Assembly (NCBI GenBank): GCA_937775205.1
Contig: CALKBX010000013.1
Coordinates: forward strand, 15,648-79,647
Reading direction: 5' to 3'
From: an uncultured Verrucomicrobiae bacterium
Lineage (GTDB): Bacteria; Verrucomicrobiota; Verrucomicrobiia; Limisphaerales; UBA1100
Length of the DNA stretch: 64,000 nucleotides
This document shows, piece by piece, positions 1,454 through 18,710 of the stretch. The position numbers and the translations under genes are program-made. Within the stretch, counting starts at the first letter, position 1. Each line of letters starts with the position of its first letter. The notes beneath the pieces were generated by a model, which ran no database searches, was not told the origin of the DNA, and saw only the letters and a program-made list of their open reading frames with translations.

Positions 1454-2389
1454 ATGAAGCTCTGTCGATTCGAACAAAACGGCCAAGCCGCAAGCCGGTT
1501 TTTATGAAAACGAAAAGGTAATCCCGATGAGCGCGGCTGCAACCGCAGCGGTCGAATCATTAGTGGACACCGATGATTTGCTGGCGTTCCTGCCTAATGG
1601 AAGAGAGCGCGCTGCGGCATTGCGAGTGACGGCATGGTTGCAAGCCAACGCTGAGATCGCAGCGGGCTTGAGCATTGCTGATGCAAAAATTCTAACGCCG
1701 GTTCCGCATCCAAATAAGTTGCTGTTGTTGGCAGGGAATTACGCCAAACACATCGAGGAAAGCGGCGGCATTGCGGTTGAGCGCGCGCGGACGTTTCCGT
1801 ATGTGTTTATGAAACCGCCGTCGACCACGCTGAACCGTCACGGTGGCGAGATATCCCTTCCGGCTGTGTCGCCGGACAACATCGATTGGGAATGCGAACT
1901 GGGCGTGGTGATCGGCAAGGACGCGCCAAGAGGAGTGACAGAGGCCGAGGCCTTGGATTATGTGGCAGGGTACACGGTGGTGAATGACATTTCCGATCGT
2001 GGCTTCCGACCCGAACCCGAATCGCGAGGAGCGCGATCGCGACAAGTTTTTCGATTGGCAACACGGCAAATGGCACGATGGCAGTTGCCCCGTCGGCCCG
2101 TGCATCGCGTGCCCGGAATCCATCCCAGATCCGCAGGCGCTGCCGCTCAAGCTCACCGTCAACGGCGAGGTGCATCAGGACGCCAGCACCGCGATGCAGA
2201 TTTTCCCGGTGGCGGCGGTGATCGAATTTGTGTCCGCCTTCGTCACGCTGGAGCCGGGCGACATCATTTCCACCGGCACCGCCGCCGGCGTGGGCCACGC
2301 GAAAGGCGTGCACCTGCAATCCGGGCGACATCGTCGAGGCCGGCATCGATGGGATTGGGGTGTTGAAAAACACAATGGTTTTGGAGTAG
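1454..2389 (+). CDS. Fumarylacetoacetate hydrolase family protein (three +1 frameshifts, probably sequencing errors)
   Basis: LLLAGNYAKH, VFMKP, DWECELGVVIG, GYTVVNDISDR, GKWHDGSCPVGP and TLEPGDIISTGT motifs lie in successive frames. ATG directly follows the upstream stop. Shifts near 1488, 2020 and 2320. Confidence 0.85.
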
Positions 2390-2399
2390 GGTTTCTGCG

Positions 2400-2936
2400 A
2401 TGGAAACGTCAACCGAGGCCCAATCCCAACCCATCGTCTGTCCCAATTGCGGGGATGCGATTTCCAATCCGCGTTATTTTTGCCCGCACTGCACGCGGCC
2501 CATTCGGGACACGGTGTCGTGCGAAGGCTGTCGGGAGCCGATTGCCGCTCAAGCCAAAAAGTGCCCGCACTGTAACACGGCCAACGCGGCGTTGTTGGCG
2601 GCCCAAGCGGGTCAATTGCAAATCTCGGTGCAGGCAAGCCCGTTCGGGGCATTCTTTTCCACTTGGAATTTTACAAGCCTGTTCCGGCCACCGGTCATCG
2701 AGGTGAAAGGCGGCAAAATCAATACCACGGTTTGGACATTCTTCACGCTGCGCGTGCATCAATCGGAAATTGAAATGACGCGACTGGCCAGCGTGCGCCA
2801 TACCAAAGGCGTGATTTGGAGCAGTCTTGTTTTCGAAACCTTCGGCGGCGCAGCGGAAGATATGGGCCAGCACGGTCTGCGCCACGATGACGCCATCAAC
2901 GTTGCCGCGCGCATCAAAGAAGTCATTGGGCGTTGA
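2400..2936 (+). CDS. Double zinc-ribbon protein with C-terminal bacterial PH-like domain
   Basis: Four CxxC pairs (CPNC, CPHC, CEGC, CPHC) followed by a beta-rich domain ending in a helix. The PH-like assignment is by pattern only. Confidence 0.7.
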   Translation: METSTEAQSQPIVCPNCGDAISNPRYFCPHCTRPIRDTVSCEGCREPIAAQAKKCPHCNTANAALLAAQAGQLQISVQASPFGAFFSTWNFTSLFRPPVIEVKGGKINTTVWTFFTLRVHQSEIEMTRLASVRHTKGVIWSSLVFETFGGAAEDMGQHGLRHDDAINVAARIKEVIGR

Positions 2937-3093
2937 ATTTATCTCATCCTCTGTAACCTTGGAGCCCATTGGCATTATTTCTACGGGCACTGCCGCTGGA
3001 GTCGGGCACGCCAAAGGAGTACATTTGAAAGTCGGCGATCAGGTTGAGGCGAGTATTGAAGAGATCGGAGCCTTGAAAAACACGATGGTTTAA
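2933..3093 (+). pseudogene. FAH 3'-end fragment, copy 2 (decaying)
   Basis: Encodes EFISSSVTLEPIGIISTGTAAGVGHAKGVHLKVGDQVEASIEEIGALKNTMV*, homologous to 2221-2389. No start codon; conserved PGD changed to PIG. Confidence 0.85.
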
Positions 3094-3107
3094 TGAAGTT
3101 AGACCAT

Positions 3108-3124
3108 CGCCTTGACTCGGTGAT
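3108..3124 (+). pseudogene. tRNA-Val(GAC) anticodon-arm remnant
   Basis: TCGCC-TTGACTC-GGTGA stem-loop, at the same offset after the FAH stop as the tRNA 3' half at 11070. Confidence 0.5.
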
Positions 3125-3317
3125 TAATCACTGTAAAGCCTATAAAACAAGGCTCAAACACATATTGATTTGTGCTATTTCGACTAATTTGAGCAGTCAC
3201 ACAAGTCATTCTTTTGGTGCAACTCGAACATCTTAAACCGAAACATAGTAGCAGTTCGACTAAATACATAAACCATGCTAGTCGTCATAGAATGGTGTGG
3301 CATACTAAGCTAGGAAG

Positions 3318-5747
3318 ATGATAACCATTCTTAAAATCACTGGCATCATGCTTGTTTTTCCGGCGATAACTTTCGCTGCTGAGCCGGCATTCGAAATGAT
3401 TCTGCAAAAGCATTGTGTGCGGTGTCATGGGCCGAAAAAGGCCAAAGGCGATTTGCGGTTGGATCAGATTTCGAGGGATTTTAAATCAGGAGTGGACGGA
3501 CAGATCTGGGCGGAGGTTGTCGAAAAAATTAATGCGGGCGAAATGCCGCCGGAGGATGAACCACAGCCGACATCCGAAGAGATCGGCAAGGTTATCTCAG
3601 AACTGGATACACGCATTCGCGAAGGCCGTGCCGAGCGCATGGCTGCACGACCGCCGGTGGCTCACTACCGACTCAGCCGCAACGAATATCAAAACACCGT
3701 TTATGATCTCTTGGGAGTCCGCTACGATCCGGCCAAGCCGGGCGAGTTGAATGAAGACACGCTTTGGCTCGGTTACGAACGGATCGGCTCGCAGCTTTCG
3801 CTCTCGCCTTCGCATGTGAATCGTTATTACCGCGCGGCGGAGATCGTACTCGACCGTGCTTTTCCCAAAAAAGTTGCCGAGACACGCAAGGTGCGCAAGA
3901 CGGCGGCGGAATTGAGGTATGGCGGCGGTGAGCAACAAAAGGAGGCTCTGGCTCGGTTCGGCATCAAACGTCCGCTGCGTTACCTCCATTTTCCTGGCCG
4001 CGTCCAAACTGCACTGTCCCCGAACTGGCTGGGTCGAACGGGTCCGGAACACAGCGGTCTTTACAAACTACGACTGCAAGCCAGCGGCATTCGCCCGCCC
4101 GGCGGTCAACCGGCCCACCTGAGCATTGGTAAGCGCACCAGTGAAGAGACCGTGGACGGCCTCATTGAACTCGATATCACCGCACCGGAAGACAGACCGC
4201 AGGTATATGAATTTGAAGTGTTCCTTGAGATGCCTACAGGACTGCACTTTGCGGTGGTGGCAACCGACGAAGTCGACCGGCGTGGCGGCGCGGCCTTCCG
4301 CAACGCGATCGCCAGCCGGGCTTATATCTTCACGCACAGCAGTGAGACTTTGCTCCTGAATCCCAACGCACCGCAGATGTTCGATGACAAAGGCAATGGC
4401 ATTTTTTCGACAGTAATTCTCGACTGGCTGGAATGGGAGGGCCCGTTGGTGACTGACGCGGAAAAATCCCGGCGCCGTGACGTGATACCACCCGAGGACG
4501 CCACGGTTGAAGTGGTCGCCGAGTATTTGCAACGCTTTGCCGAACGCGCCTGGCGCCGTCCGGTGAAATCGGCGGAATTAAAGAACTATCTCGACTCCTA
4601 CCACGTTGATCGCGAGGCCGGCGAAAAAGCGGTTTCCGCTTATTGCAATGCCCTACTGAGAGTGCTGACTTCCCGGAATTTCATCTACCTGGTCGAGGGT
4701 GATCCCGTGGCCCGCGAACGGCTCACGGATCAGGAACTCGCTTCGCGGCTTTCGTATTTTCTCTGGAGCTCGATGCCTGACGACGCGCTCCTTACCGCGG
4801 CCAAGGCCGGCAGCCTGAAAGAGGACCGATTGCAAAAGGAAGTAAACCGAATGCTGACCGATGTCCGGATCAACCGTTTCATCGAAGATTTTTCAAGGCA
4901 ATGGCTGCAACTGCATCGCGTGGGCATGTTCCCGCCGGACAAAAAACTGTACCTCGGCTACGACGATTGGCTCGAGACGAGCATGCGCAATGAGCCGGTG
5001 GAATATTTCCGTGAGTTGCTGACCAAGAACCTGCCTATCGAGAGTTTGATCGACTCGGACTGGACCATGGCCAACGCGCGACTTTGTGATTTCTACGGAT
5101 TGCCAGATCCAAAAAACGGCGGCTTCCAGCGCGTCACGCTCAAGGACGGAGATCATCGCGGCGGCCTGCTTACGATGGGGGCAGTGCTTGGTTTGACCTC
5201 CGACGGAACCCGCCATCGCCCAGTGCATCGCGGGGTTTGGGTCAGCGAAACGATCTTTAACAAGACACCGCCACCGCCGCCGGCCAATGTCGACCCTATC
5301 GAGCCGGTGCCGCCCACGGGCAATAAGATCACCATCCGGCAGCGCATCGAGGCACACGCCAAGAACGCGAACTGCGCAGCGTGCCACCGCACGATCGATC
5401 CGTTGGGGCTAGCCTTCGACCAATATGACGCCATCGGCCAATGGCGTACCCATGAACACGTGCCGACCGGTGTGGGTGAGAATCCGTTGGTGGACGCGTC
5501 CGGCGTCATGCCCGATGGCCGGAAGTTTGCGAACTCGGCCCAGTTCAAGCAATTGCTGTTGGAGGATCGCGACCAGATTGCGCGGGCGTTCATTGAGCAT
5601 CTTTGCACCTACGCGCTACGGCGCGTGTTGACAGTCGACGACCGCGATGACATTCAATCCATCGTTGAAAAAGCCAAGCAAGGACAGTATCGTGTTCAAA
5701 ACATTGTTCGGGCTGTGGCCACTTCCGAACTATTACAAAAACGCTAA
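3318..5747 (+). CDS. DUF1592/DUF1588/DUF1587/DUF1595/DUF1585 protein with planctomycete-type cytochrome c domain
   Basis: Signal peptide; CxxCH haem motifs CVRCH and CAACH; family motifs [44 protein letters not shown] and PPPPP. Confidence 0.9.
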
Positions 5748-5762
5748 AACCCAAGCCGAATC

Positions 5763-7118
5763 ATGAGCAATATTCAGACCCAATCCTGGTTAATCGACCG
5801 CCGCCACGCCCTGCGCGCAATGGGAACCTGCATCGCCCTGCCGATGCTTGAGTGCATGATCCCGCTGACGGCCAAGGAGAAAATCAGCTCGCCGCGACGC
5901 AGTGCCTTCATTTACCTCGCCAACGGCGTGCATTCGCTAAATTACCAGATCACCAAGCCGGGCAACGATTACCAATTCTCTCGCTCGCTCAAGCCGCTGG
6001 AGAAATTCCGTAACACCATAACGCCAATCAGCGGTCTGCACCATCCCGGAAGTCTGGGGCATCACCACAACTGCATCGACATCTTTCTGACCGGCGCCAA
6101 GATCGGTGCAGCGCATCGCAACACCATTTCAGTGGACCAAAAGATGGCGCAGGTCAGCGGGCAGCATACGCGCTATTCCTCCATGGAAATCGCGCTCACC
6201 GGCGGGTCCCTCGCCTGGACCCCGGACGGCGTTCAGCTTCCCGCAATGCGGCGGTGTAAACAAATTTTCGCCTCACTCTTCGAGGAGCCCAAGGACGGTA
6301 TTGCCGCCCAACGAAAGGCACTGCGACGCAAAGCCAGTGTGCTGGATGACAACCTTACCGAAGTTCGTCGTCTGTCTCAGAAAATCGGTGCAGCCGATAA
6401 AGGCCGCCTCGACCAATACCTCACCTCTGTCCGTGAGGCTGAGATTCGCACACGCCGCGCCGATGCCTGGCTCGACACGCCATTGCCGGAGATTTCTGCA
6501 GCCGACCGTCAACGCACCAACCGCGATGTGCCCAAGACACAGGCAGGCGACTATTTCCGCACGGTCTATGACCTCATGGTGCTGGCTTTCCAAACGGACG
6601 CTACGCGCGTGGCCACTTTCAGCCTAGGCGGCGAGGGCGATGCGTTCGCCATTCCGGAGATTGGTATCACCGAATCGCGCCACCAACTCAGCCACCACGG
6701 TGGTGATGAAGGCTACATGGAGAAGCTCACCAACTACGATACCTTCGCCATCGATCAATTCAGCTACTTCCTCACGCGGCTTTCGGAAACCAAGGATCTG
6801 AACGGTAAATCGTTGCTCGGTTCAACCATGTCGCTCTTCGGCAGCGGCATGTCCTACGGACACAGCCATGGGAATGCCAACCTGCCACTGGTACTCGCTG
6901 GCGGCACAGATCTCGGCCTGAAGCACGGCAGCCACCTCGATTTCAATCAGGGTCATTTCGACGGCTACACACTCAATAAGCCCGGCGACCACTACCGCCT
7001 CTGCAGTCGCCCTGCGAACACGGATGCCCACATGAGCAACCTGCTCCTCCTCATGTCCCAAAAGATGGGTTTGGAAACCGATCAATTCGGCGATAGCAAC
7101 AAAGTGATTTCGTTATGA
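5763..7118 (+). CDS. DUF1552 family protein
   Basis: Twin-arginine-like N-terminus (IDRRHALR), [22 protein letters not shown] and LPLVLAGG motifs; canonical partner downstream of DUF1592. Confidence 0.9.
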
Positions 7119-8405
7119 CTCGGATACAACCCGGCATACGTTTCGCCGTGCTGACACTCGGCGCGGCCCTGCTGACTGTGCCTTCTTACGCTGAGGAAAA
7201 ACCGTTCCGCCCTGAAGCGGGGAAGTTTCCTCCCTTGGACAAAGCACATGCCTACCGGGGCGAACTCATCTTTGTCGATCACGCCAACCGCCGTGGCAGC
7301 CTCCGCGTCGAAGGAACGGGCAAATTTTACCGAAACGACCCCCATCCATTCGCTCTACTTCCTTATGGCATAGTCCGCTACCACGATGCGCCTGCGGATC
7401 TGCGGGACGTTCCCTTGGGAACCGTTTTGCATGCCCATGGATTTCTACCGCCTGACCCCAAAATTTCCTCCGTTCCGGTATTGCCGACCAACAATAAGGG
7501 CAAGGACGCCGGCCATTATCGCGGCACTGGCATTTTCCCCGCAGAGAACCACGTCCTTCTACTTGAGGACGAGCCCAGTTACTGCAGACGAAACGGACTA
7601 ATCTGGAAACTCATGGAAGTGGAGATCAAGGGCAACGAGGGTTCGATTCTTGCCAGGCGTGAATCTCAAAAAAAGGATGAGAAAAAATACGAACCGGAAA
7701 AAATGACTTTCGATGCCGCCACACGTATTTGGCGTGGTCGCGAATCAATCCGAGTCTCGGATCTGATCGACGAGAAAGTATGGCCGGTAAGTGGAAAGAA
7801 AGAACCCAACGATCAAGCCGTTCTTGCTGAGCATCACTTGGAAACCCGCTCCTGGGGATGGACTGAGTGGGGCTTTCACACGCTTTCACGTCTCGGATAT
7901 CTGGTTGGACGACAAGTCTATTGAACACGCGGCCTATTTTCAGACTGAGAAGCACAAGACCTTTATCAAAAGCCGCTGGATGCCCGCCCGGGTTGATGAA
8001 ATAAACTATGGCAAGTTCGGTCGAGCTACCGTAACGGCTACCTTGTTCGGAGGAATGAGCGAATCCACCTTTATTCCGACTTCCGAAAGGGAAAGCGGTG
8101 GGCAAATTAATGGTGCGGAAAACACCCTGAAGCACACTGCAGGCCACTATGGCCCCGGACACATGGCCTCGGGTGGTAAAATCCTTCGAGTAAAGAAGAC
8201 GAGTGGTAAGATTCCCCTTGGCAGCAGCGGCATACAAGTCCAGTTCGAAACCGACCTCGTCATCGAGGGCATCCGCCCCGGCACGGGTCATCCGCGTTCG
8301 ACCGGACTCGTTGGCCCAAGATGCAGATACCCCGGGAAGAATACCTTTTCACATAACACGCCCGAGGACCGGTTCCCGACTCCGGCCATCTTCCCGAAAT
8401 ACTGA
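7115..8405 (+). CDS. Secreted protein of unknown function, paralog A (multiple frameshifts, probably errors)
   Basis: Signal peptide; colinear with the 8423-9688 protein across frame changes near 7830, 8070-8100 and 8280-8350; shared C-terminus PE(D/E)[11 protein letters not shown]. Confidence 0.75.
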
Positions 8406-8422
8406 CCCTAGGAAATCGCCTC

Positions 8423-9688
8423 ATGACTCAACTTAAACTTGTCCGATGGATCGCCACGCTGCCCCTCAGTGTGTGCCTCCTCGTTTCCAAAGCCAATGCC
8501 CAGGAAGAACCGTTCCGTCCTGAGGCGGGTAAATTCCCTCCGCTGGAAAAGGCTCATTCCTTCCGAGGCGAACTCACATTTGTTGACCACGCAAACCGAC
8601 GAGGCAGCCTACGCATCCAAGGCGCGGGCACCTACTTCCGCAACGCGCCGCACCCCTTCGCCATGTTGCCCTACGGCATCATCCGCTATCATGGAGCTCC
8701 TGCTGAACTGCGCGACATTCCCATCGGCACCGTACTCCATGCTCGGGGCTTTCTCCCGCCGAATCCCAAGCTTTCTTCCGTGCCGGTCTTGCCGGTCAAC
8801 AACCGGAACAAGACCGTCGGCTACAGCGGCAAAGGCATCGCCCCTGCCGAGAACCACCTCATCCTATTGGAAGACGAACCCAGCTTCTGCCAACGCGAAG
8901 GCAAAGTCTGGAAGCTCAAGGAAGTGGAACTCCAGAACAACACTGGCAAGATCACAGCTCGCCGCGAAGCCAAAATCGACGCCAACAAGGCCGAAGAGAA
9001 AACATTAACTTTCGATGCCGCCACCCGCATCTGGCGCGGTCGTGAGAAACTCGAAGTGGCCGACCTTGTCGCTGATGGCATCTGGCCTGCCAACGGCAAG
9101 AAAACCCTCAATGATCAAGCCGTCTTGCTCGGCATCACCTGGAAACCCACTCCGAGTAACATCTTTACCCGTTTCCACATCTCAGACATCTGGTTGGACG
9201 ATGTCGCCATGCAACGCGCCGCGCGTAATCAGACTGAGACGCACAAAGCATTCATCCGAACCCGCTGGATGCCCGGTTGGATTGATGCGGTTGAGTACGG
9301 CAAATTTGGTACCGCCACGGTGACCGCTACCCTATTCGGCGGCATGGATGAATCACTCTACGCAGATTTTAAGAAGGATTCCTCCGCCCTGATGAACGCA
9401 GTGGAGAGTAACCTCAAGCACACGCACGGCGCCTACAGCCCTGCTCACATGGCCAGTAAAGGCCCCATCCTTGATGTCATGAAAACCAAAGGTGACATCC
9501 CGTTCGGCAGCAGCGGTATCCAGATCAAATTCAAGACCGACCTTATCATCGAAGGCATACGCCCCGGCCGCAACATCCGCGTGCGCCCAAGTCACTGGCC
9601 TCACGTCAATATCCCCCGCGAAGAATACCTCGGCGGCAATACCCCCGAAGAACGCTTCCCTACCCCAGCCATCTTCCCGAAATATTGA
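8423..9688 (+). CDS. Secreted protein of unknown function, paralog B
   Basis: Intact 421-aa ORF with signal peptide; strong similarity to paralog A ([37 protein letters not shown]). Confidence 0.85.
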   Translation: MTQLKLVRWIATLPLSVCLLVSKANAQEEPFRPEAGKFPPLEKAHSFRGELTFVDHANRRGSLRIQGAGTYFRNAPHPFAMLPYGIIRYHGAPAELRDIPIGTVLHARGFLPPNPKLSSVPVLPVNNRNKTVGYSGKGIAPAENHLILLEDEPSFCQREGKVWKLKEVELQNNTGKITARREAKIDANKAEEKTLTFDAATRIWRGREKLEVADLVADGIWPANGKKTLNDQAVLLGITWKPTPSNIFTRFHISDIWLDDVAMQRAARNQTETHKAFIRTRWMPGWIDAVEYGKFGTATVTATLFGGMDESLYADFKKDSSALMNAVESNLKHTHGAYSPAHMASKGPILDVMKTKGDIPFGSSGIQIKFKTDLIIEGIRPGRNIRVRPSHWPHVNIPREEYLGGNTPEERFPTPAIFPKY

Positions 9689-9838
9689 GGCGACTATTAT
9701 CCGCCTCCACCTCAAAATTGGCCCAAGATCACTCCTTCTTCGAAGAATAAATCCGCGGCCTCGAAGCCCGCTGGCTGAGCTCTGAAATTTTCAAGAAGTA
9801 ATCGAGTGTTTGAACGAACTTCATGTTTTCCTAGGAAA

Positions 9839-9881
9839 GAGCGGTTAGCTCAGTTGGGAGAGCACTGCCTCGACACGGCGG
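9839..9881 (+). pseudogene. tRNA-Val(GAC) 5' half
   Basis: GAGCGGT-TA-GCTC-AGTTGGGA-GAGC-A-CTGCC-TCGACAC-GGCGG gives acceptor strand, D arm and anticodon arm (GAC). No T arm or CCA follows. Confidence 0.8.
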
Positions 9882-9911
9882 TGGCGCTGGGATAGAGAGC
9901 TTTCCTGAAAT

Positions 9912-10310
9912 CTATTCACTGTCAGAATCTTCCGCTGGATCTTCTCCGGATTCTGCAGCAGCAGCCTCACGAGCCTTGCGGGCTTCAATAAATGAACGGA
10001 TGCACAATCCAACAAAAACAACGCATAATACTAGCGTCACGGATTTAGCCGCAAGGGCAGCGGTGGGTTGACCTTTTTTTAATAGGGTGGGAATTACACC
10101 AATTGCCCCAATCAAGCCCACCATTACCGCGATGTGCATAGCCATCATCCGTCTATTTTCATTGGATGCTAGAAATCCACAGACCAGAAGAATCAACCCC
10201 AAGGCAGCAGGAATCAAAGCCGTTAGCTGCTCTGCACCTGTACCAAAATATCCGGCCAATCCAGTGGCGAGCAAAAGCGCCCCGAACAAAATTGTTATCT
10301 TATACATCAT
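9912..10310 (-). CDS. Small membrane protein (about 4 TM, TMEM14-like)
   Basis: Four hydrophobic segments (GLAGYFGTG, TALIPAALGLILL, AMHIAVMVGLIG, SVTLVLCVVFV) and an acidic tail. Family resemblance is by pattern. Confidence 0.7.
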   Translation of the reverse strand: MMYKITILFGALLLATGLAGYFGTGAEQLTALIPAALGLILLVCGFLASNENRRMMAMHIAVMVGLIGAIGVIPTLLKKGQPTAALAAKSVTLVLCVVFVGLCIRSFIEARKAREAAAAESGEDPAEDSDSE

Positions 10311-10348
10311 CGCGGCTGTCATTCTAACGGTTTACACACAAAGGTAAA

Positions 10349-10373
10349 GCTCTAGAGGCAGGACTCGAACCTG
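10349..10373 (-). pseudogene. Possible tRNA T-arm/3' fragment (tRNA-Leu-like)
   Basis: Minus strand reads CAGG-TTCGAGT-CCTG-CCTCTAGAGC, a perfect T stem-loop; the rest of the tRNA is absent. Confidence 0.4.
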
Positions 10374-10427
10374 TTCTGTTGTTTTCTGGGGGTAGTTGAC
10401 AGATTATTCACAACTTCGGATATACAC

Positions 10428-10460
10428 CACATCGAAACGGAGGGGGTCACTGGTTCGGGC
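10428..10460 (+). pseudogene. tRNA-Val fragment (anticodon arm to T loop), degenerate
   Basis: CACATCGAAACGGAGGGGGTCACTGGTTCGGGC matches 11071-11103 at 27/33 nt and abuts the ADH-fragment stop codon. Confidence 0.7.
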
Positions 10461-10805
10461 TTAAAACAAAATTACTTGGCGCGCGACTTCGCCTTTGTGG
10501 AGGCGATCGAAGCCTTCGTTGATTTCTTCCAAATGAAGGGTGTCAGTGAGTAGCTGGTCCACCGGTAATTGGCCGGCATGGAACATCTCAATAAACTTCG
10601 GGATATCACGGCTCGGCACGCAGCTTCCCTGATAGGAGCCTTTCACCGTTTTCTCCATCGCACTCAATGTGACGGCAGGAATACTGAATTGATGGTCTGG
10701 ATGCGGTAAACCAATGGCGACCGTGGTGCCTCCACGCATGGTCGATTCATAGGCTTGGGCGAGCACGGTGGCGTTTCCCGCGCTCTCAATAGCGATTTCC
10801 AAACC
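10461..10805 (-). pseudogene. Zn-ADH 3'-end fragment (duplicate of 17521-17865)
   Basis: About 113 in-frame codons homologous to the ADH C-terminus (GSYQGSCVPSRDIP...VARQVILF*); lacks the catalytic N-terminal part. Confidence 0.9.
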
Positions 10806-11056
10806 CTCAAAATCTGCCGCTTAAATTAACAGTAAATGGAGAAGTGCATCAGGATGCGAGCACGGCCATGCAGATTTTTCCGGTGGCTGCTGTGATTGAA
10901 TTCATTTCCTCTTTTGTGACCTTGGAACCCGGTGACATTATTTCCACGGGGACGGCCGCTGGGGTAGGGCACGCCAAGGGAGTTCACTTGAAATCGGGTG
11001 ATCAGGTTGAGGCCAGTATTGAAGGGATCGGAGCCTTGAAAAACACGATGGTCTAA
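10799..11056 (+). pseudogene. FAH 3'-end fragment, copy 3
   Basis: PNPQNLPLKLTVNGEVHQDASTAMQIFPVAAVIEFISSFVTLEPGDIISTGT...LKNTMV* in one frame; begins back-to-back with the ADH fragment. Confidence 0.9.
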
Positions 11057-11069
11057 TGATGTTCGACCA

Positions 11070-11119
11070 TCACCTCAACACGGTGGGGGTCAGTGGTTCG
11101 AGCCCACTACCGCGTGCCA
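11070..11119 (+). pseudogene. tRNA-Val 3' half
   Basis: TCACC-TCAACAC-GGTGG-GGGTC-AGTGG-TTCGAGC-CCACT-ACCGCGT-G-CCA followed by a T run; anticodon reads AAC; no D arm. Confidence 0.8.
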
Positions 11120-11160
11120 TTTTTCCTAACTCTGTATGACAGGGTTAAATGAGAACTGCC

Positions 11161-11277
11161 TCACTCAGGCCACTTTTCGCACTGTTGTTCAGTCCAGTCT
11201 TTACCTTTCGCTTCCTGCGCGAAAGCGTTGAAGCAAAAACTCAATGTAACAATCGTAGTAATAACTGCTTTCTTCAT
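11161..11277 (-). CDS. 38-aa small secreted protein or truncated gene
   Basis: MKKAVITTIVTLSFCFNAFAQEAKGKDWTEQQCEKWPE*; GAGGA ribosome-binding site about 8 nt upstream; signal peptide with AFA cleavage site. Below the ORF-track cutoff. Confidence 0.5.
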   Translation of the reverse strand: MKKAVITTIVTLSFCFNAFAQEAKGKDWTEQQCEKWPE

Positions 11278-11333
11278 GTATCGTTCCTCGTTAAATATTT
11301 TTGGTTAGAGTCCAAGTTTTGCGCCTTCGCTGC

Positions 11334-11426
11334 CTAGAGCGCGCTTACGCCCCAGAGCTTCGAAAGCTTCTTGCAGTGGATCACGATCGCCTTGTATTTC
11401 GACAGGTCCGTCCCCGCCGGGATATT
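11334..11426 (-). pseudogene. DM13-domain C-terminal remnant
   Basis: NIPAGTDLSKYKAIVIHCKKLSKLWGVSAL* matches the DM13 C-terminal pattern IPxGxDLSxYxxVVIWCxxFxxxFGxAxL; no intact upstream part. Confidence 0.55.
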
Positions 11427-11482
11427 CCTGCCATGGCATGTACTTTCCTGTCTCGAAGTTCGGTCGACCCATTTTTGGCGGA

Positions 11483-14400
11483 TTATTTGCCTTTTTTACG
11501 CTTGGCTCCTTCGCGTTTTTTGGCCATTGCCGCCTTGTACTTCTTCAATTGTTCTTCGTCCAGAATCTTGGCGAGACTGGCATGGAACTTCTTCCCGACA
11601 GCCTGTATTTTTTTGCGATCCTTTGATGCCTGCGCTTCCTTCATCAATGGCTGCATCGTTTTTTGGAGCTCCTGGACTTGCACCTTCTGTTCCTGGCTGA
11701 GACCAACGCCGGCGAACCGGTCAGGGCGGTTGCCTTTTCCCTTCTGATTTTCAGGTATTGCCTCCGCTCGAACAGGCAATTGTTTCGCGGTAGTAGATTG
11801 ATCATCGGTGGCGTCCGCCATGATTTTGAGGTCGTCAATTTCAATGCCGCTTTCGCCACCGTTCAGCATGAACAACAGCATGTTTTTTCGGAATGCAAAG
11901 CCAGGGCGCTGGAGGGATTTTGTCCAGCGATTGTTGTCCAGTCGGATCACCACGCGGTCGCCCTTAAAGACAAGTTGCAGGTTGTGCCAGTTCTTGTCCT
12001 GTAGGTCGACGGCCTCTGGTTTGAGTCTCTCTTCTACCCGATAGGCGCCACTGACTTTATCAGGTGGCCTGTCCTCCTTCTGTGGGCTTTGCTTTCTCCG
12101 CCGAGCGAGATTCTTGAGCAGTTTCGGATCTTTCGGGTTCTTCGTATGCGCATCGACTTGAATCCGCACCGAGTTTCTCAACAACGCCACCCGCAGCATA
12201 TGATCTTGCCCACCAAAACCATCGTCTCCATCGATAAACAGCCAGAGCATCCTGCCGTCGCCCAAATGCCTATAGCGAAAGGAAATGGAGCAATCGATTT
12301 CATCGATGGGAATGCCGACAAATGGCGGATATTTGCCGCCGCTATGGCCGCGGGTCCACATAGCGCCATTGCGTATCGTCGTGTATTCGGGGCTGAACCT
12401 AAGAAAACGGCTGGGATCGACTTTGTCGAAGGGCTCGTGTCCTTTGAACAGTTGCTTGATCGATGCGTCGGCAGGCGATTGGACATTCGTGTCCGTACTT
12501 CCCGAAACAGGTTGAAAACCCGCGCTCCTTTTCAAAACGTCACTACCTTTGGGTTCGCTGTAGAGATTATTCATAAAAGTTCGGCTGGAGATCAAATCCA
12601 GAACCAGCCCCTTGAAGCCGTCACCATCCAGTCGAGATTGCGTGACGAGTTGTTTTACTTTTTGCTTTTCCGAATAGTTCAAGACGCGGCCAGTCGCGTA
12701 GGTAAGCAACTTTTCTGACAAGCAGTTGCCAAAGTAATCGACGTTGGCAACAAGCCACCGCTTAAAGGCGGCAGCATCCTTAATTCTGGTACCGTCGAAG
12801 AGCACGCCTGAAGCGTCGATGGGCTTTTGGGTGGCGGGCCAGACCTGCCGCCACTTACCGACGGGATCGTAATTTTCCAACATAAAGCCGACGGGGTCGA
12901 TGAGTCGGTGGCACGATGCGCATGATGCGTCGGTGGTGTGTTTGGCCAGGAGTTCCCGTGGCGTGGTAGCGCCCCGGGTATCCGGCGTAAGGGCGGGGAC
13001 GTCCTGGGGCGGCTCCGGCGTCGGCATACCTAAGACGTTTTCCAAGACCCAGGCGCCGCGCAATACCGCTTGCGTATCGACGCCGTTAGCCGTTGCCATC
13101 ATCACAGCGGATTGCCCCAATATCCCGCCGTGGCGATGCCCCTTGGGGAGAGCGATGCGTTCCAGCTTCAGACGATTTATGTTTTCGATAGATTTGCGTT
13201 TCGGACCCGGACCCAGCCCGTAGATTCGGTGGGAGAAACTTGGCGTCGTATAGGTAAAATCCGGATCGATGAAGGTGCTGACGGGCAGATCTTTTGAGAG
13301 AATCTCGCTGAAGAAGTGAAACGTCTCCCGCTTGGCCGTTTCCGTATCGAGTGCTGAAAACTTGAATTTGGGGTCCGGCATGATGTCGTCGAGATCTCCC
13401 ACGTTGAGCCATTGACTGACAAAACTGGTAATCATCGGCGCATCGTACGTCGTGGGCATTAAGCGTTTGGCTTCGGCACGCAAAATCTGCGGATTCCGCA
13501 ACTGCGACTGGGATGCGAGCTGCAACAAGCGGGCATCTGGTGGTTGCTTCGTGAGAAAGTAGGATAAACGGGCGGCCAGATCGAAATCGTCGAGCTGATC
13601 GCCATTGTAGGAACGATACAAGAATCGCGGCGATATGAGAATCTTCCGCAGCAGCAGATGCATGGTCACGTCCGCATCATGCCCTTCGGAAAACGAGTGT
13701 TTAGCGATTTTCATATAGGTCGCGATGGTTTCTTCGCTGACGGGACGCCGAAATGCGCGCGGCAAAAATTGACGCAGAAAAGGCTCGATCATTGCCTCTC
13801 CAGAGCCTTTGCCGGCTGGGATGCCGAGTACCTTGAGTTTGAGCTTCGCTGCCGTTGCCTCGGATCGAGAGGGAATCAACTTCAGCGGTCCAGTGACACT
13901 GGCTGCATGCAGCTGCAGAGCGGGACCGTTTTCGAAATAATCCGGGGCAAGGAACTCGTAGAATCGCCGAGAAAACGGAAGTTTGTCCTTGGCGCCTGGC
14001 GGATTCCGAAAAAACCGAAAGATTTTAGCCGTGGTTTTGGGGTCGCGAGCTGCGGCGCTGACGTCCAGCTTTGGATCGTTCATCTGGTTCTGAAAGTGCT
14101 GCCACCCCTTGCCAAGTCCGCGGACGACTGATTGGTGAGATGTGGCAAGAGGGCCAAAGGTGGCGTTCCATACCGCGTGAAAGCGCTTGTCTATTTTGAA
14201 ACGTTCACGCAGGTGCGCTTCTAAAGGTTCGGCTTCAAAATCAATGGGAGCATTCTTGAAGTGAAAGATCAGGGTCTGCCCAGCATATAGATCCGCATCA
14301 AAGTGAACGATCTTGGGGGTCCTGGAGTCCACCCTTATTTCTTTTAGAAGACGAAACTTCTCGTAGCCAGCCCGGGGATTGGTGGTGCTTTCGGTTGCGC

Positions 14401-15304
14401 GAACGTGGAGTATCATCGGTTCCCGCATGAAATTGCCTCGTTTTGCATTGAAGGCCGACGTTTTAATTTCGATGCGGTAGGTGCCGGCCACTTTGGCTTC
14501 GAACTGATCCAGCCAGGTGCCGCTGAAAGCTTTCAAGTCTGTGCGGCTGACGAGGCGCAGCGCATCACCGTGAATGGAGGAGGCAGAATAGCTCTTGGCC
14601 ATGTCTTTCGGGCCGGCTTTGTGGGTTGTTGACTGCAGATCTCGAGACCGCTTGCGGGGATAAAAGAGGTCGGCAAACGTTTCGGCAGTTTCGGAATAAG
14701 CTTCCAACAGATCGGGAGAGGTAACCAGGCCTTCGCTGAGGTTGTCGAAACCGTGAAGCTCGTTGTCTTCTGGAAAACCCAGCGGCAATTTGGCCCCTCC
14801 CTGTTGGAACAGCGCCCGCATGGTGTTGCGGTATTCGTCGCGACTCAATCGGCGTGCTTTGGTGACGCCAAAGATTGGCGTCTCAGACAATTCTTTTGCA
14901 ATCCAATCGCTAAATTGCGTGCGCTCCGCTTCTCTTGGTTGTGACTTTTTCTTCGGCGGCATCAACTTGTCGTGATTTGCGCCAAGCACCTTTTCCCAAA
15001 AAACGCGGTCTACCTCCTGGCCCCAATCGACGACGTCGCGTTCAAGATTGACGTCGCCTTTCTCGGAGTCGCTGTCATGACAGTCGATGCAATAACGATT
15101 GACGTAGTCGTGGACAAACGACGGAACAGGTTCCGCCTGCGAAGCTTCGTTTATCACCTTAACCTGTACTCGAGGAGTATCAAGCTGATGACTTGCCGAT
15201 GGCTTCCCGCACCCAAATACAAAAAGGCTAAATAGAACTGTAATCGTCGCGACAAGCAGGTGAAGCCAGAGGCTCGCGGCGTTGCGAGTGTGTATAACCG
15301 CCAT
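11483..15304 (-). CDS. Lipoprotein cytochrome c / DUF1587-1592-1595-1588-1585 protein with extra beta-sandwich and Spy/CpxP-like C-terminal domains
   Basis: Lipobox LFVFGC; CIDCH and CASCH haem motifs; ARRLSRDEY, LAARLSYFL and GGILGQ motifs; about 330-aa C-terminal extension. ATG overlaps the DUF1552 stop (TAATG). Confidence 0.85.
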   Translation of the reverse strand: MAVIHTRNAASLWLHLLVATITVLFSLFVFGCGKPSASHQLDTPRVQVKVINEASQAEPVPSFVHDYVNRYCIDCHDSDSEKGDVNLERDVVDWGQEVDRVFWEKVLGANHDKLMPPKKKSQPREAERTQFSDWIAKELSETPIFGVTKARRLSRDEYRNTMRALFQQGGAKLPLGFPEDNELHGFDNLSEGLVTSPDLLEAYSETAETFADLFYPRKRSRDLQSTTHKAGPKDMAKSYSASSIHGDALRLVSRTDLKAFSGTWLDQFEAKVAGTYRIEIKTSAFNAKRGNFMREPMILHVRATESTTNPRAGYEKFRLLKEIRVDSRTPKIVHFDADLYAGQTLIFHFKNAPIDFEAEPLEAHLRERFKIDKRFHAVWNATFGPLATSHQSVVRGLGKGWQHFQNQMNDPKLDVSAAARDPKTTAKIFRFFRNPPGAKDKLPFSRRFYEFLAPDYFENGPALQLHAASVTGPLKLIPSRSEATAAKLKLKVLGIPAGKGSGEAMIEPFLRQFLPRAFRRPVSEETIATYMKIAKHSFSEGHDADVTMHLLLRKILISPRFLYRSYNGDQLDDFDLAARLSYFLTKQPPDARLLQLASQSQLRNPQILRAEAKRLMPTTYDAPMITSFVSQWLNVGDLDDIMPDPKFKFSALDTETAKRETFHFFSEILSKDLPVSTFIDPDFTYTTPSFSHRIYGLGPGPKRKSIENINRLKLERIALPKGHRHGGILGQSAVMMATANGVDTQAVLRGAWVLENVLGMPTPEPPQDVPALTPDTRGATTPRELLAKHTTDASCASCHRLIDPVGFMLENYDPVGKWRQVWPATQKPIDASGVLFDGTRIKDAAAFKRWLVANVDYFGNCLSEKLLTYATGRVLNYSEKQKVKQLVTQSRLDGDGFKGLVLDLISSRTFMNNLYSEPKGSDVLKRSAGFQPVSGSTDTNVQSPADASIKQLFKGHEPFDKVDPSRFLRFSPEYTTIRNGAMWTRGHSGGKYPPFVGIPIDEIDCSISFRYRHLGDGRMLWLFIDGDDGFGGQDHMLRVALLRNSVRIQVDAHTKNPKDPKLLKNLARRRKQSPQKEDRPPDKVSGAYRVEERLKPEAVDLQDKNWHNLQLVFKGDRVVIRLDNNRWTKSLQRPGFAFRKNMLLFMLNGGESGIEIDDLKIMADATDDQSTTAKQLPVRAEAIPENQKGKGNRPDRFAGVGLSQEQKVQVQELQKTMQPLMKEAQASKDRKKIQAVGKKFHASLAKILDEEQLKKYKAAMAKKREGAKRKKGK

Positions 15305-16545
15305 TATGCTTCCCACAACGAGTTTAGGTTTCGCGAGGCGTTGGAGAAACGCTCGCACTCGATTCCCAGCCGCTGCTGCAAAGAAATGAAGAGATCACCC
15401 AACAGGTAGGGGGCACGAGTGCTTGGGTCGACCGCAACGTGGCGACCGTGCTTGCCGCCGCCGCCCGCCACCAAGCTCGGGAGATTTCGATTCGAATGAC
15501 GACTGGCGTCTCCCATGCCTGTTCCAAGAAAAACCAAGGTGCTGTCGAGAAGTGGCCGACCCAGGGCGTCTTTCTTTTCCTTTAACTGGTCCAGAAAGCC
15601 GTTGAAGCGCTTTACGTGCTCGCGCTCGATCCGGATCAGGTCGCGAATTCGTGAGGGATCGTTGCCGTGATGAGACAGCGTATGATAACCTTGACTGAGG
15701 GACTCGCCCTCGAGTTCGAAAACCGGGCCTCCGCCGCCCAACTGCATCGTTAAAACGCGACTGGAACCGTTTTGGATGGCCAGGGCGATGAGATCATACA
15801 TCAGCGTTGAGCACTCCATCTGTTGTCGCGGCGCTACCGGATCACTGTCTGGAAGTTTGTAGCTGGTGGTCGGTACGGGATCGTTGATCCGCGCAATTCG
15901 CGTTTCCAAGCGCTTCTCCACGCTGCGTAGCGAGGTGAAGTATTCGTCCAACGCGCTTTGGTCACGGCGCGAGACTGTTTTCTGAAGTCGATTGGCGTCT
16001 TCCAGCACATAGTCCATGGCCGACTTCCCGCTCCGCAGAATGTGCTCCTGATGCTTCTGATCGGCTTGCGAAATGAACATTTTCTTGTAAAACACCGATG
16101 GTCGTCTGATGGCGGGCAATCGTGTTCCCTGCTTCGAAAAGCTCATCGGAGCGGCACTGCCTCCGGCGACTAGCTGAACAGAGCTGAAACGACAGCTCGT
16201 TCCGATTTGGTCGGCGATCATCTGATCCAGGGAGTAGCTGCCAACCCTTTGGCCGCAGAGTAAGTTCGCCCAATAGTTGTGACCATTGGGCGCCTGATGA
16301 TCCAAGCCCGAGAAGATTGTGAAGTCCCGACGATGTCCGGCAATGGGTTCCAGTATTTCCGGCATCGTATAGTTGGCGCCAGCCTCTTTGGGATAGAACC
16401 CCTTTTGATACCAACCAAGGTTGGCTCCAATGGCGACAAAAGCTTTGGCCTTTTTTGATGCATCTTTAGGGGCTCCAAAACTCTCAAGAGCCGGGAGGGC
16501 GATGCATACGCCGAGTGATGAGAGAAATTGCTGACGTGATATCAT
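15304..16545 (-). CDS. DUF1552 family protein
   Basis: SLDQMIADQIG, YHTLSHHG, LGTGMGDASRHS and NLPSLVAGG motifs; degenerate twin-arginine N-terminus (ISRQQFL). Confidence 0.9.
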   Translation of the reverse strand: MISRQQFLSSLGVCIALPALESFGAPKDASKKAKAFVAIGANLGWYQKGFYPKEAGANYTMPEILEPIAGHRRDFTIFSGLDHQAPNGHNYWANLLCGQRVGSYSLDQMIADQIGTSCRFSSVQLVAGGSAAPMSFSKQGTRLPAIRRPSVFYKKMFISQADQKHQEHILRSGKSAMDYVLEDANRLQKTVSRRDQSALDEYFTSLRSVEKRLETRIARINDPVPTTSYKLPDSDPVAPRQQMECSTLMYDLIALAIQNGSSRVLTMQLGGGGPVFELEGESLSQGYHTLSHHGNDPSRIRDLIRIEREHVKRFNGFLDQLKEKKDALGRPLLDSTLVFLGTGMGDASRHSNRNLPSLVAGGGGKHGRHVAVDPSTRAPYLLGDLFISLQQRLGIECERFSNASRNLNSLWEA

Positions 16546-16719
16546 GTGGCGGCCTCTGTCTCTAGCGCTTGGTCATTGTGCTCAATGCACAGGGTCTGAA
16601 TTGATCGGTGGTGTGGAGTAACGGCACAAACAGTACTCTTGTGGCTTCTTGTTTTCTGTTATCCGTAGCAGCCGGCAAGTTCATGAACATGAACCTACCC
16701 AGTGAGCTCTTAAAGCTAT

Positions 16720-16755
16720 AGAATGAAACGGTTTGTTTTTTAGATGAAATCGGCG
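16720..16755 (-). promoter_or_regulatory. Candidate AraC-type tandem operator
   Basis: Minus strand CCGATTTCATC and CCGTTTCATTC with TTTCAT cores 21 bp apart, upstream of the DUF1552 operon. Confidence 0.3.
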
Positions 16756-16762
16756 TCAGGGG

Positions 16763-17497
16763 CTATCTGGCCCGATGTGATTTACGGTAAGTAAGAGGGG
16801 TTGTTTTCATGATACGTGAGAACTCACGGGAGAGGTGGCTTTGATCCGAGAAACCACAGCGATGGGCAACTTCAACAAGCTGGTGACTGCTATGACTGAG
16901 GAGATAACATGCTTCATGCACGCGGAGGTGCCGGATGTAGCTCCGTGCCGTCATATGGAATGCTTTTTTAAATTTCCGTTCAAAAGCACTGAGTGAAAGC
17001 CCGACTTCCTTGGCGAGTTCGGAGATTTTGATGGTGGATGCAAATTGTTCTTTCATCACCCCGAGTGCTGGGCCGAGTTCTCTATCAATATCGATTCCTA
17101 AAGTTCCCAAGGCAAAGGGACGAGTGGCCCCGGCGATGGCTTTGATGGTGCCATCGGGAGCGCGGAGCGGGATTTTCGTGGTAGTCGACCAATCGACAAA
17201 TCCACCGCCACTAGGAACGAGTTCAACTTTGTTTAAGATGGGCATTCCTGTTTCCAGGATAGTGCGGTCACTTTTGGCATAGCCGTCGGCCATGGATAGA
17301 GAGAAAAAGTCGTAGTCAGTTTTGCCGATGACCTCCTGAGCATCTTTGCAACCAAATTTCTCCACTAATCGTTGGTTGACAGCCACAAAGCGGAACTGGG
17401 TGTCTTTGACAAAATAGAGAAAGCCTTCGATATGATCGAAGAGGCTCTCGCCATGGTCTGTCAGGCCGTTGGATGTGAAAAAATCGTGATCGCTCAT
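16763..17497 (-). CDS. PAS-domain AraC family transcriptional regulator
   Basis: N-terminal PAS (FVKD, VIGKTDYD, KIPLR) and C-terminal double HTH (LAKEVGLSLSAFERKFKK, CGFSDQSHLSREF). Confidence 0.92.
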   Translation of the reverse strand: MSDHDFFTSNGLTDHGESLFDHIEGFLYFVKDTQFRFVAVNQRLVEKFGCKDAQEVIGKTDYDFFSLSMADGYAKSDRTILETGMPILNKVELVPSGGGFVDWSTTTKIPLRAPDGTIKAIAGATRPFALGTLGIDIDRELGPALGVMKEQFASTIKISELAKEVGLSLSAFERKFKKAFHMTARSYIRHLRVHEACYLLSHSSHQLVEVAHRCGFSDQSHLSREFSRIMKTTPLTYRKSHRAR

Positions 17498-17507
17498 GGT
17501 TATCGGA

Positions 17508-17520
17508 CATTGGTTCGAGC
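17508..17520 (+). pseudogene. tRNA T-arm remnant
   Basis: CATTGGTTCGAGC directly abuts the ADH stop, mirroring 10448-10460. Confidence 0.5.
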
Positions 17521-18645
17521 TTAAAATAAAATCACCTGCCGGGCAACTTCACCTTTGTGAAGTCGGTCAAAGCCCTCGTTTATTTCTTCCAACTTGATGG
17601 TGTCAGTGAGTAGCTTATCCACCGGTAATTGGCCGGCATGAAACATCTCAATAAACTTCGGGATATCACGGCTCGGCACGCAGCTTCCCTGATAGGAGCC
17701 TTTCACCGTTTTCTCCATCGCACTGAGCGACACGGCGGACACGCTGAATTGATGTTCCGGATGCGGCAGGCTGATGGCGATGGTGGTGCCGCCGCGCGCG
17801 GTGGATTCGTACGCCTGCACCAGCACCTTCGCGTGGCCGGCGCTTTCGAGGGCGATTTCCACGCCACCGTGGGTGAGGTCGCGGATGGCTTCCACGGGAT
17901 CGCACTCGGCGGCATTTACGGTGTGTGTCGCGCCGAGGTTGCGGGCCATCTCGAGTTTTGATTCCAGTAAATCGACGGCGATGATTGTGCCCGCGTCGCA
18001 CGCCTTCGCGCCCATCAACGCGGCAAGCCCCACGCCGCCGAGGCCGAACACCGCGACCGATTGGCCGGGGCGAATGTCAGCGGTATTCATCACCGCGCCG
18101 GTGCCGGTCATCACCGCACAGCCAAAAAGCGTGGCGTGCTCGAAAGGCAAGTCGTTGTCAATCTTCACCAACGAGCCGGGCAGGGCGATGGTGTATTGCG
18201 AATAACCGGACACGCCGCAGTGGTGAAAATACGATTTGCCGTTGCGGCTGAATCGTTGGGCGCCATTCAACAACGTGCCGGCGTTGTTGGCGTCCATCCC
18301 CGGTTCGCAAAGGGAAGGGCGGCCTTCGGCGCAGTAGCGGCACGCGCCGCAGCTGGGGATGAAGGTGAAAACCACGTGGTCATCCGGCGCAAATCCGCGC
18401 ACGCCTTTGCCCACTTCGCGCACGATGCCGCTGGCTTCGTGGCCGAGCACCATCGGCATGGGTCGCGGTCGCGCGCCCTCGATGACCGATAAATCCGAGT
18501 GACATAGCCCCGCGCCTTTCACCTCCACCAACACCTCGCCTTCGCCGGGGCCTTCGAGTTCCAATTCCTCGATGACCATCGGTTGCGAGTCGGCGTAGGG
18601 CAATGGCCGTTCTGTTTTGTGCAGCACCGCGGCGGTAGTTTTCAT
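17521..18645 (-). CDS. Zinc-dependent alcohol dehydrogenase (MDR, class III-like)
   Basis: GLCHSD, GHEASG, structural CxxCxxCx7C and Rossmann GLGGVG motifs; start MKTTAA at 18645. Confidence 0.95.
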   Translation of the reverse strand: MKTTAAVLHKTERPLPYADSQPMVIEELELEGPGEGEVLVEVKGAGLCHSDLSVIEGARPRPMPMVLGHEASGIVREVGKGVRGFAPDDHVVFTFIPSCGACRYCAEGRPSLCEPGMDANNAGTLLNGAQRFSRNGKSYFHHCGVSGYSQYTIALPGSLVKIDNDLPFEHATLFGCAVMTGTGAVMNTADIRPGQSVAVFGLGGVGLAALMGAKACDAGTIIAVDLLESKLEMARNLGATHTVNAAECDPVEAIRDLTHGGVEIALESAGHAKVLVQAYESTARGGTTIAISLPHPEHQFSVSAVSLSAMEKTVKGSYQGSCVPSRDIPKFIEMFHAGQLPVDKLLTDTIKLEEINEGFDRLHKGEVARQVILF

Positions 18646-18710
18646 CGGCGGGAGGATTGGGTAAATCGCAGTGGATTGCAATTGCCCAACGTTTGGGGCA
18701 GAGTGAGCGG

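Follow-up and report, generated by a model that had tools for sequence, protein, structure and literature searches.

We analyzed a 64,000-nucleotide window of an uncultured Verrucomicrobiae bacterium (GenBank assembly GCA_937775205.1, contig CALKBX010000013.1, positions 15,648 to 79,647), in which an FAA_hydrolase-family gene (FAH) and a convergent zinc-ADH gene (ADH) are separated by 15.1 kb; the locus has three 3' ends of FAH. We give about an even chance to the reading that the two extra FAH tails derive from donor DNA and were left behind as stubs when an entire foreign FAH-ADH locus was imported at least twice. From left to right, the locus consists of FAH copy 1, the open reading frame ORF178, FAH copy 2, P1, SegA, P2, SegB, P3, ADH', FAH copy 3, P4, SegC, P5, and the full ADH (Table 1), where primes (FAH', ADH') denote truncated 3' ends. 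The genome containing the window is called G000, its relatives carry other G labels (the family comprises 31 genomes), and L labels denote metagenome contigs from independent samples. G003 is 'Verrucomicrobia bacterium AH-558-L06' of genus g1, G011 belongs to g4, and G019 to g5.

The three FAH ends reported in a preliminary description of this DNA are all present: copy 1 ends at 2389, copy 2 spans 2933-3093, and copy 3 ends at 11056. The start given there for copy 3 (10799) was wrong; it lies at about 10806, and bases 10796-10805 are truncated ADH that merely resembles FAH (ATTTC..A.CC, 8/11). Copies 2 and 3 do share the ending ...GALKNTMV-stop and the downstream sequence TAATGA(A/T)GTT(A/C)GACCATC(G/A)CCT. 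The anticodon arm noticed behind them is genuine, as it matches the genome's own tRNA-Val(GAC) over positions ~15-43 (copy 2) and ~15-76 (copy 3). We could also see the missense damage ascribed to copy 2 (F to S, GD to IG, and G to E), while copy 3 is clean, and the proposed rate comparison agreed: the nonsynonymous divergence (dN) from intact alleles is 0.07-0.10 for copy 2 versus 0.02-0.04 for copy 3. An alignment of copy 2 with copy 3 that takes in the sequence downstream of each (2933-3122 and 10896-11085, 190 nt) shows 84% identity. Copy 1 matches copy 3 at 75% over 200 nt; within the shared 159 nt, its identity to copies 2 and 3 is 69-72%.

A maximum likelihood tree of the shared 159-nt FAH ends grouped copy 1 with G002, G004, G005, G007, and G008 (support 98/96). 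Copies 2 and 3 grouped with the full-length FAH genes of G003, G019, and G011 and with the copy-2 fragments of G001 and G002 (support 99/98). The G+C content at third codon positions (GC3) is low along the entire FAH gene in G003, G019, and G011, and wherever sequence downstream of a low-GC3 FAH allele is known, a fusion of FAH to tRNA-Val follows. Their separate clade, the low GC3 of the whole gene, and the tRNA fusion show that copies 2 and 3 did not arise by local duplication of copy 1. They are the truncated ends of a divergent allelic lineage that crosses genus boundaries. G003 holds the untruncated counterpart of copy 2, an intact low-GC3 FAH followed by P1, SegA, P2, and SegB. Two other sources were considered and rejected. 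An AT-rich style limited to the 3' end, as in an element-borne replacement end, does not agree with genes of low GC3 throughout in G003, G019, and G011, and a paralogue within the same genome does not qualify, the sole other FAH-family match there being 44% identical.

FAH and ADH are convergent neighbors in the family, with ADH beside FAH in 12 of the 19 FAH-bearing genomes and within 4 kb of it when both are on one contig. The gap between them measures ~10-37 nt in G006, G014, G009, and G013, ~0.55 kb (ORF178 alone) in G005 and G008, ~1.0 kb in G004 and G007, ~1.3 kb in G001 and G002, and 3.9 kb in G020, where a different DUF1552/DUF1592 pair is present. ORF178 comes after FAH in G001, G002, G004, G005, G007, and G008, and the order in G019 is FAH, a 45-nt tRNA-Val relic, and ADH. 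This tabulation bears out the assumption of the preliminary description that FAH and ADH are normally adjacent in related genomes. The FAH-ADH interval is a hypervariable hotspot between two conserved genes.

The joint between ORF178 and copy 2 (2932/2933) is base-for-base equal in G000, G001, G002, L050, L052, L055, L058, and L059. Its presence in three species indicates that it is old. Microhomology at this joint amounts to at most 1-2 nt. In G008, ORF178 directly adjoins ADH, so a donor fragment starting at FAH -160 would have become attached exactly at the ORF178/ADH boundary, and the exchange on the right-hand side of this event is placed within or past ADH. Copy 2 carries substitutions at conserved residues and, in G002, a 9-nt deletion, which shows relaxed evolution. 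SegA was later lost in G001, G002, and L052 by deletion between AACACGATGGT in the FAH end and GACACGGCGGT in P2, at two different crossover points.

The joint between ADH' and copy 3 (10805/10806) lies in patchy microhomology, with CC at the joint itself within the 8/11 match described above. We located carriers of this joint through exact-protein look-ups, as a direct 40-mer search of metagenome contigs gave no match. The exact 40-mer is present in six contigs from six samples and different assemblers (L052, L054, L060, L061, L065, and L067), and thus the joint is not an assembly artefact. Contigs L048 and L055 carry SegB, P3, and a single complete ADH but lack the 7,060-bp unit from copy 3 to the ADH 3' end, and on either side of this gap they match the window at 97-99% identity. 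Its absence from such near-identical contigs indicates that the unit is recent. It is present in at least six other samples, and it is a presence/absence polymorphism between 345-nt direct repeats of the ADH 3' end. The copy-3 joint is limited to one species-level population that still holds the empty-site haplotype. The unit occurs both with SegA (window, L054) and without it (L052).

To describe the ADH 3' ends, we use segments a (variants a1 and aZ), b (a 126-nt patch), and c (variants c2 and c_host). The ADH' stub has the composition a1-b-c2 and is 99-100% identical to the intact ADH of G002, where the flanks are just 85-89% identical. The full ADH is aZ-b-c_host, and the empty site in L048 and L055 is a1-b-c_host. 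Patch b is 98% identical between the two ADH repeats.

A second instance of the same architecture is present in another population. The order in L070 is FAH, a small gene, a 117-nt ADH stub, a ~30-nt FAH end with the tRNA-Val D-loop, a different DUF1552/DUF1592 module, tRNA-Val from positions 1-43 onward, and the full ADH. Its ADH'/FAH' joint is at the microhomology AATTGG, and L069 is the matching empty form. Joints of this kind therefore arose at least twice, with different breakpoints, each at a microhomology.

Behind each FAH stub comes a fused remnant of a tRNA-Val(GAC) gene, and every cargo segment is bracketed by fragments of the same decayed gene. The genuine tRNA-Val(GAC) of the genome is at 42874-42949 of contig C14 (the locus itself is on C13; further tRNA genes mentioned below are on C4 and C24), and the match to it begins in the D-loop right behind the stop codons of copies 2 and 3. 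Within the window, P1/P2, P2/P3, and P4/P5 form direct-repeat pairs. ARAGORN and Rfam called no tRNA within the window, nor did ARAGORN at any related locus. We rejected a functional tRNA overlapping the FAH end, given these blank results and an unpaired acceptor stem. The decayed tRNA-Val gene between FAH and ADH is a historically reused site, and the repeats point to earlier site-specific insertions into a tRNA gene formerly located between these two genes. No tyrosine recombinase (PF00589) was found on contig C13, although the genome has three, on C2 and C5, and the Pfam matches of the cargo open reading frames include no recombinase.

Several further observations concern these tRNA genes. 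The genuine tRNA-Val and, behind it, a single-gene cassette occupy C14:42874-44330. The cassette encodes a BNR/sialidase-like secreted protein on the minus strand, is delimited by a 36-nt repeat of the tRNA 3' end, and contains no integrase. The 36-nt repeat indicates that the 3' half of tRNA-Val has acted as an attachment site in this lineage. The lineage's tRNA-Val(GAC) has C rather than U at position 33 (anticodon loop UCGACAC), and the relics of G018 and G019 have the same loop. A near-identical pair of tRNA-Val(TAC) genes with identical upstream sequence lies 8.1 kb apart on C24 (1446-1521 and 9574-9648). In SegB, the tRNA-Asn 3' fragment on the minus strand (10349-10373) matches tRNA-Asn(GTT) at C4:90629-90703 at 22/24 positions, and homology to G003 stops inside it. 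A hairpin over the FAH stop codon of copies 2 and 3 (3083-3108 and 11047-11071) pairs the FAH end with the tRNA relic; the stems are of 12 bp and 7+3 bp and the z-scores -2.8 and -2.2, respectively, and the hairpin is absent from the G019 and G011 alleles.

We propose that these structures accumulated in several steps. Ancestrally, FAH and ADH would have converged directly. In the low-GC3 lineage, which is found full-length in three genera, a tRNA-Val(GAC) gene would have lain between them, and the anatomy of the locus suggests that cargo modules, mostly DUF1592/DUF1552 pairs, inserted into this gene before it decayed. Loaded alleles could then have moved across species by host recombination, with a homologous crossover in ADH or in DNA beyond it and with illegitimate joining of the donor's left end at a short stretch of microhomology, a pattern like that of homology-facilitated illegitimate recombination (HFIR). 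Exchange by homology on the FAH side is not expected, because the alleles are only about 70-75% identical. In the old event 1, a donor end at FAH -160 would have been joined to the ORF178 stop to give copy 2. In the recent event 2, a donor end at FAH -251 would have entered the resident ADH, 345 nt from its stop, to give copy 3, the ADH stub, and the 7,060-bp unit. These later moves would have taken place without an integrase.

The proposed sequence retains the claim of the preliminary description that at least two foreign alleles were captured in succession, copy 2 being the older. The joint of copy 2 is common to G000, G001, G002, and metagenome contigs, and its dN is raised; that of copy 3 is found in one population. 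The companion claim, that the FAH end acts as the left anchor of the hotspot, finds no support in that form. The stubs appear to be passengers, as their left ends differ (-160, -251, and about -30 nt), and the mosaic ADH would place the homologous anchor on the ADH side.

We infer the direction of transfer, the route of uptake, and the linear or circular entry of event 2 from these structures. Linear capture into a G002-type ADH, with the anchor further to the right, fits the contiguity of ADH' with the G002 haplotype. Entry as a circle with one crossover in patch b fits the a1-b-c_host empty site and L069-like alleles. Under this second possibility, a 7,060-bp circle would have been excised from the donor by microhomology joining of FAH (-251) and ADH (345), would have integrated by a Campbell-type crossover without an integrase, and could loop out likewise, so that the stubs would have the same origin. 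The direct repeats, 345 nt long and 7,060 bp apart, the 98%-identical patch, and the empty site in L048 and L055 are all as expected for such integration. The pair a1-b-c2 and aZ-b-c_host fits the reciprocal chimeras that it would leave. A circle should join an aZ-like end to a c2-like body, and natural low-GC3 ADH alleles such as L069 have this composition. The repeated architecture in L070 and the occurrence of the unit with and without SegA point the same way. However, this route predicts that ADH' formed as a chimera at its present site, whereas segments a, b, and c of the stub all match the contiguous gene of G002 at 99-100%, and the ADH' of L052 carries lineage-specific single-nucleotide polymorphisms through patch b. 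We rejected L048 as the exact parent of a reciprocal crossover, since the last part of its segment a contains a private 25-nt patch shared with neither copy in the window, and neither a circle nor a transfer function was observed. We regard the circle as possible but less likely. A broader version of this idea, that DUF1592/DUF1552 modules travel as integrase-free units with stubs of both flanking genes, possibly as circles, and insert or loop out by host recombination in the ADH 3' end, is likewise put forward only tentatively.

Integrase-driven tandem accretion, in which cargo elements carried an FAH 3' end in their attachment region and the stubs are att-site duplications, would account for the tRNA-Val fragments that bracket every segment and has a parallel in the one-gene cassette with its 36-nt 3' repeat at the genuine tRNA-Val locus. 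Yet neither the window nor the rest of the contig has an integrase, each event left a stub of a different length (160, 251, and about 30 nt), the stubs have unrelated partners on their left (the ORF178 stop, ADH at 345 nt, and ADH at 117 nt), and the copy-1 type of ending occurs in genomes without copy 2. The variable stub lengths, the unrelated left partners, and the lack of an integrase argue against an origin from att sites or of the icd/e14 type, and we consider accretion very unlikely. In-place tandem duplication of the interval from FAH end to ADH end, followed by divergence and cargo replacement, would likewise yield an ADH'/FAH' joint at a microhomology. We consider it very unlikely as well, as the copies are 70-84% identical and in different allelic clades, their intervening DNA has nothing in common, and the ADH stub is identical to the allele of another species. 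A concatenation of strain variants during assembly might be suspected because the sequence is a metagenome-assembled genome and because copy 1 and the 7115-8405 gene contain clustered single-base insertions. This explanation is effectively refuted, however, by the exact recurrence of both joints in independent assemblies from different assemblers and samples.

Four points weigh against import of a foreign FAH-ADH locus by HFIR-like joining. Natural competence or another uptake route is not known for the lineage. The ADH mosaic pattern fits a single-crossover circle equally well, and the tRNA-Val direct repeats show site-specific integration at some earlier stage. Finally, a search of 120 FAH homologues for the donor of copy 3 found none whose full FAH reaches 98% identity to it. 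The best candidates in that search match at 81/84 residues and 87-89% of nucleotides (L070, L069, and G003), and a donor arrangement of full FAH, P4, and SegC was not found.

Events of this type are already known, and the locus is a well-documented further case rather than a new system. PMC6382021 documents HFIR joins at 3-10 bp microhomologies and gives HFIR as known in Acinetobacter baylyi, Streptococcus pneumoniae, and Pseudomonas stutzeri (de Vries & Wackernagel 2002, cited in PMC6382021). The likeness lies in one probable homologous anchor (ADH or beyond), with the other foreign end joined near it at a microhomology of 2-8 nt, and in foreign DNA left with truncated gene ends. Short microhomologies are present at the ADH'/copy-3 joint and, as AATTGG, in L070. 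On the nonanchored side the foreign DNA is highly divergent (69-72% identity, clade support 99/98), and on the side of the proposed anchor ADH is a mosaic with a 98%-identical patch and a host-type body. The cases differ in that HFIR was described from laboratory transformation, whereas ours is drawn from natural genomes and metagenomes of an uncultured lineage, and in that event 2 duplicates the ADH end, which is also compatible with circle integration.

The Asn tDNAs of Klebsiella pneumoniae are a tRNA-gene integration hotspot with tandem islands (PMC4891358). The FAH-ADH interval resembles such a hotspot in that one site was used repeatedly and the cargo segments are separated by partial-tRNA direct repeats. 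In contrast to tRNA-targeting islands, we found neither a recombinase gene in or near the islands nor an intact terminal tRNA; the flanking genes have truncated the dead tRNA gene at both ends, some fragments hold its 5' half, and later mobility would have gone through the flanking genes instead of att repeats.

Two phage-related processes also leave gene ends beside inserted DNA. In Escherichia coli, a site-specific integrase inserts e14 and phage 21 at one fixed position in icd, which remains intact because the element supplies a replacement 3' end. The FAH-ADH locus likewise has second, divergent 3' ends of a chromosomal gene beside inserted DNA, but the breakpoints vary (-160, -251, and about -30 nt), there is no integrase, the stubs are nonfunctional leftovers, and the copy-1 type of end is present in stub-free genomes. 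In aberrant excision of the specialized-transduction type, a mobile piece takes along flanking host DNA. Here too the mobile piece bears bits of the genes that flanked it in a previous host, but stubs of both flanks are present and phage or excision functions are not.

Table 1. Features of the FAH-ADH interval, in window coordinates
Feature	Coordinates	Strand	Remarks
FAH copy 1	1454..2389	+	FAA_hydrolase; genus-typical allele; ...NTMVLE-stop ending; three +1 frameshifts in this assembly
ORF178, double zinc-ribbon protein	2400..2936	+	Pfam DZR; genus g1-specific cargo between FAH and ADH
FAH' copy 2, 160-nt low-GC3 allele stub	2933..3093	+	attached to ORF178 stop at 2932/2933
P1, tRNA-Val(GAC) relic, positions ~15-43 (D-loop and anticodon arm)	3097..3125	+	same junction behind intact FAH of G003
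SegA cargo	3126..9840	+	Pfam; DUF1592-family haem protein, DUF1552, two paralogous secreted proteins
SegA DUF1592-family haem protein	3318-5747	+	Pfam
SegA DUF1552	5763-7118	+	Pfam
SegA secreted-protein paralogues	7115-8405 (frameshifted) and 8423-9688	+	
P2, tRNA-Val(GAC) 5' part, positions 1-43	9841..9885	+	89% identity over positions 3-40
SegB	9886..10424	-	136-aa membrane protein gene (9912-10322) and tRNA-Asn 3' fragment (10349-10373)
P3, tRNA-Val relic (anticodon arm to T-loop)	10425..10460	+	fused to ADH stop codon; same fusion in G019
ADH', 345-nt zinc-ADH 3' stub (113-aa C-terminal)	10461..10805	-	99-100% identity to intact G002 ADH
FAH' copy 3, ~251-nt low-GC3 allele stub	10806..11056	+	attached to ADH' at 10805/10806
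P4, tRNA-Val relic, positions ~15-76 with CCA and T-run	11060..11112	+	91% identity over positions 25-71
SegC cargo	11113..17497	-	DUF1592-family protein, DUF1552, PAS-AraC regulator
SegC DUF1592-family protein	11483-15358	-	
SegC DUF1552	15304-16545	-	
SegC PAS-AraC regulator	16763-17497	-	
P5, degenerate tRNA-Val T-arm relic	17498..17520	+	fused to ADH stop codon
Full ADH	17521..18726	-	mosaic 3' end: aZ 17521-17598, patch b 17599-17724, host-type c from 17725
Presence/absence unit, 7,060 bp	10806..17865	.	copy 3, P4, SegC, P5, one ADH 3' end; 345-nt ADH direct repeats at both sides

The cargo is dominated by the DUF1592/DUF1552 pair, which we take to be a very large gene family pair of Planctomycetes and Verrucomicrobia with unassigned function. 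Across genomes, four distinct pairs occupy the FAH-ADH hotspot: two in the window (3318-7118 and 11483-16545), one on C6 of G020, and one in L070. The proteins of SegA and SegC, compared with each other's relatives and with G020, are 27-35% identical (the L070 pair is outside this comparison). SegA is common to G003, L048, L049, L058, and L059 and is deleted in G001, G002, and L052, and SegC is matched at 98.6% identity by the independent contig L045. SegB together with the ADH stub (9886-10805) is 96-100% identical to G002, and SegB likewise to G003, in surrounding DNA of 75-90% identity; these values indicate a probable very recent interspecies exchange of this segment.

Copy 1 had been described as the full gene. 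It does end at 2389, but its reading frame is broken by three +1 insertions, at about 1488-1492, 2010-2013, and 2317-2323, which are uncompensated against every orthologue. It further has a local +2/+1 pair at 1919-1931, and identity to the other alleles is only 53-74% across its first ~230 nt. The same-population contigs L058 and L059 (ORF178 identical, flanks ~97-98%) encode an intact G002-type FAH of 309 aa. The 7115-8405 gene of SegA has seven surplus bases (7826, 8066-67, 8096, 8284, 8310, and 8350), clustered within 530 nt, relative to L048 and L049, which are 99% identical to the window there and encode an intact 427-aa version of the protein; every difference is an insertion. Random assembly error was not supported as the cause of the copy-1 frameshifts: against short-read contigs there are 1-3 indels per 7-8 kb, but these two genes have 6-7 inserted bases within 0.5-0.9 kb. 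Copy 1 and the 7115-8405 gene are either real pseudogenes or regions of locally poor consensus.

Another variable site is found 5' of FAH. In L058, L059, L050, L046, and related species, the isochorismatase gene and FAH are separated by a 682-aa AXE1/glucuronoyl-esterase-like gene. It is missing from the window, where the isochorismatase stop directly adjoins the FAH start (1453/1454).

For annotation, the short FAA_hydrolase and ADH_zinc_N 'genes' called at this locus in many metagenomes are scars and should be treated with caution. The locus offers a natural example, from several species and at least eight metagenome samples, of modules moving between species without mobile-element machinery, with stubs of the flanking genes recording each event and its relative age. 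It also suggests that, even after its decay, a tRNA gene flanked by two conserved genes can continue to mark a hypervariable locus. If modules do travel as integrase-free units, the two independent ADH'/FAH' joints and the reassortment of SegA would be the footprint of a general, flank-borne mobility of islands in bacteria poor in mobile-element genes.

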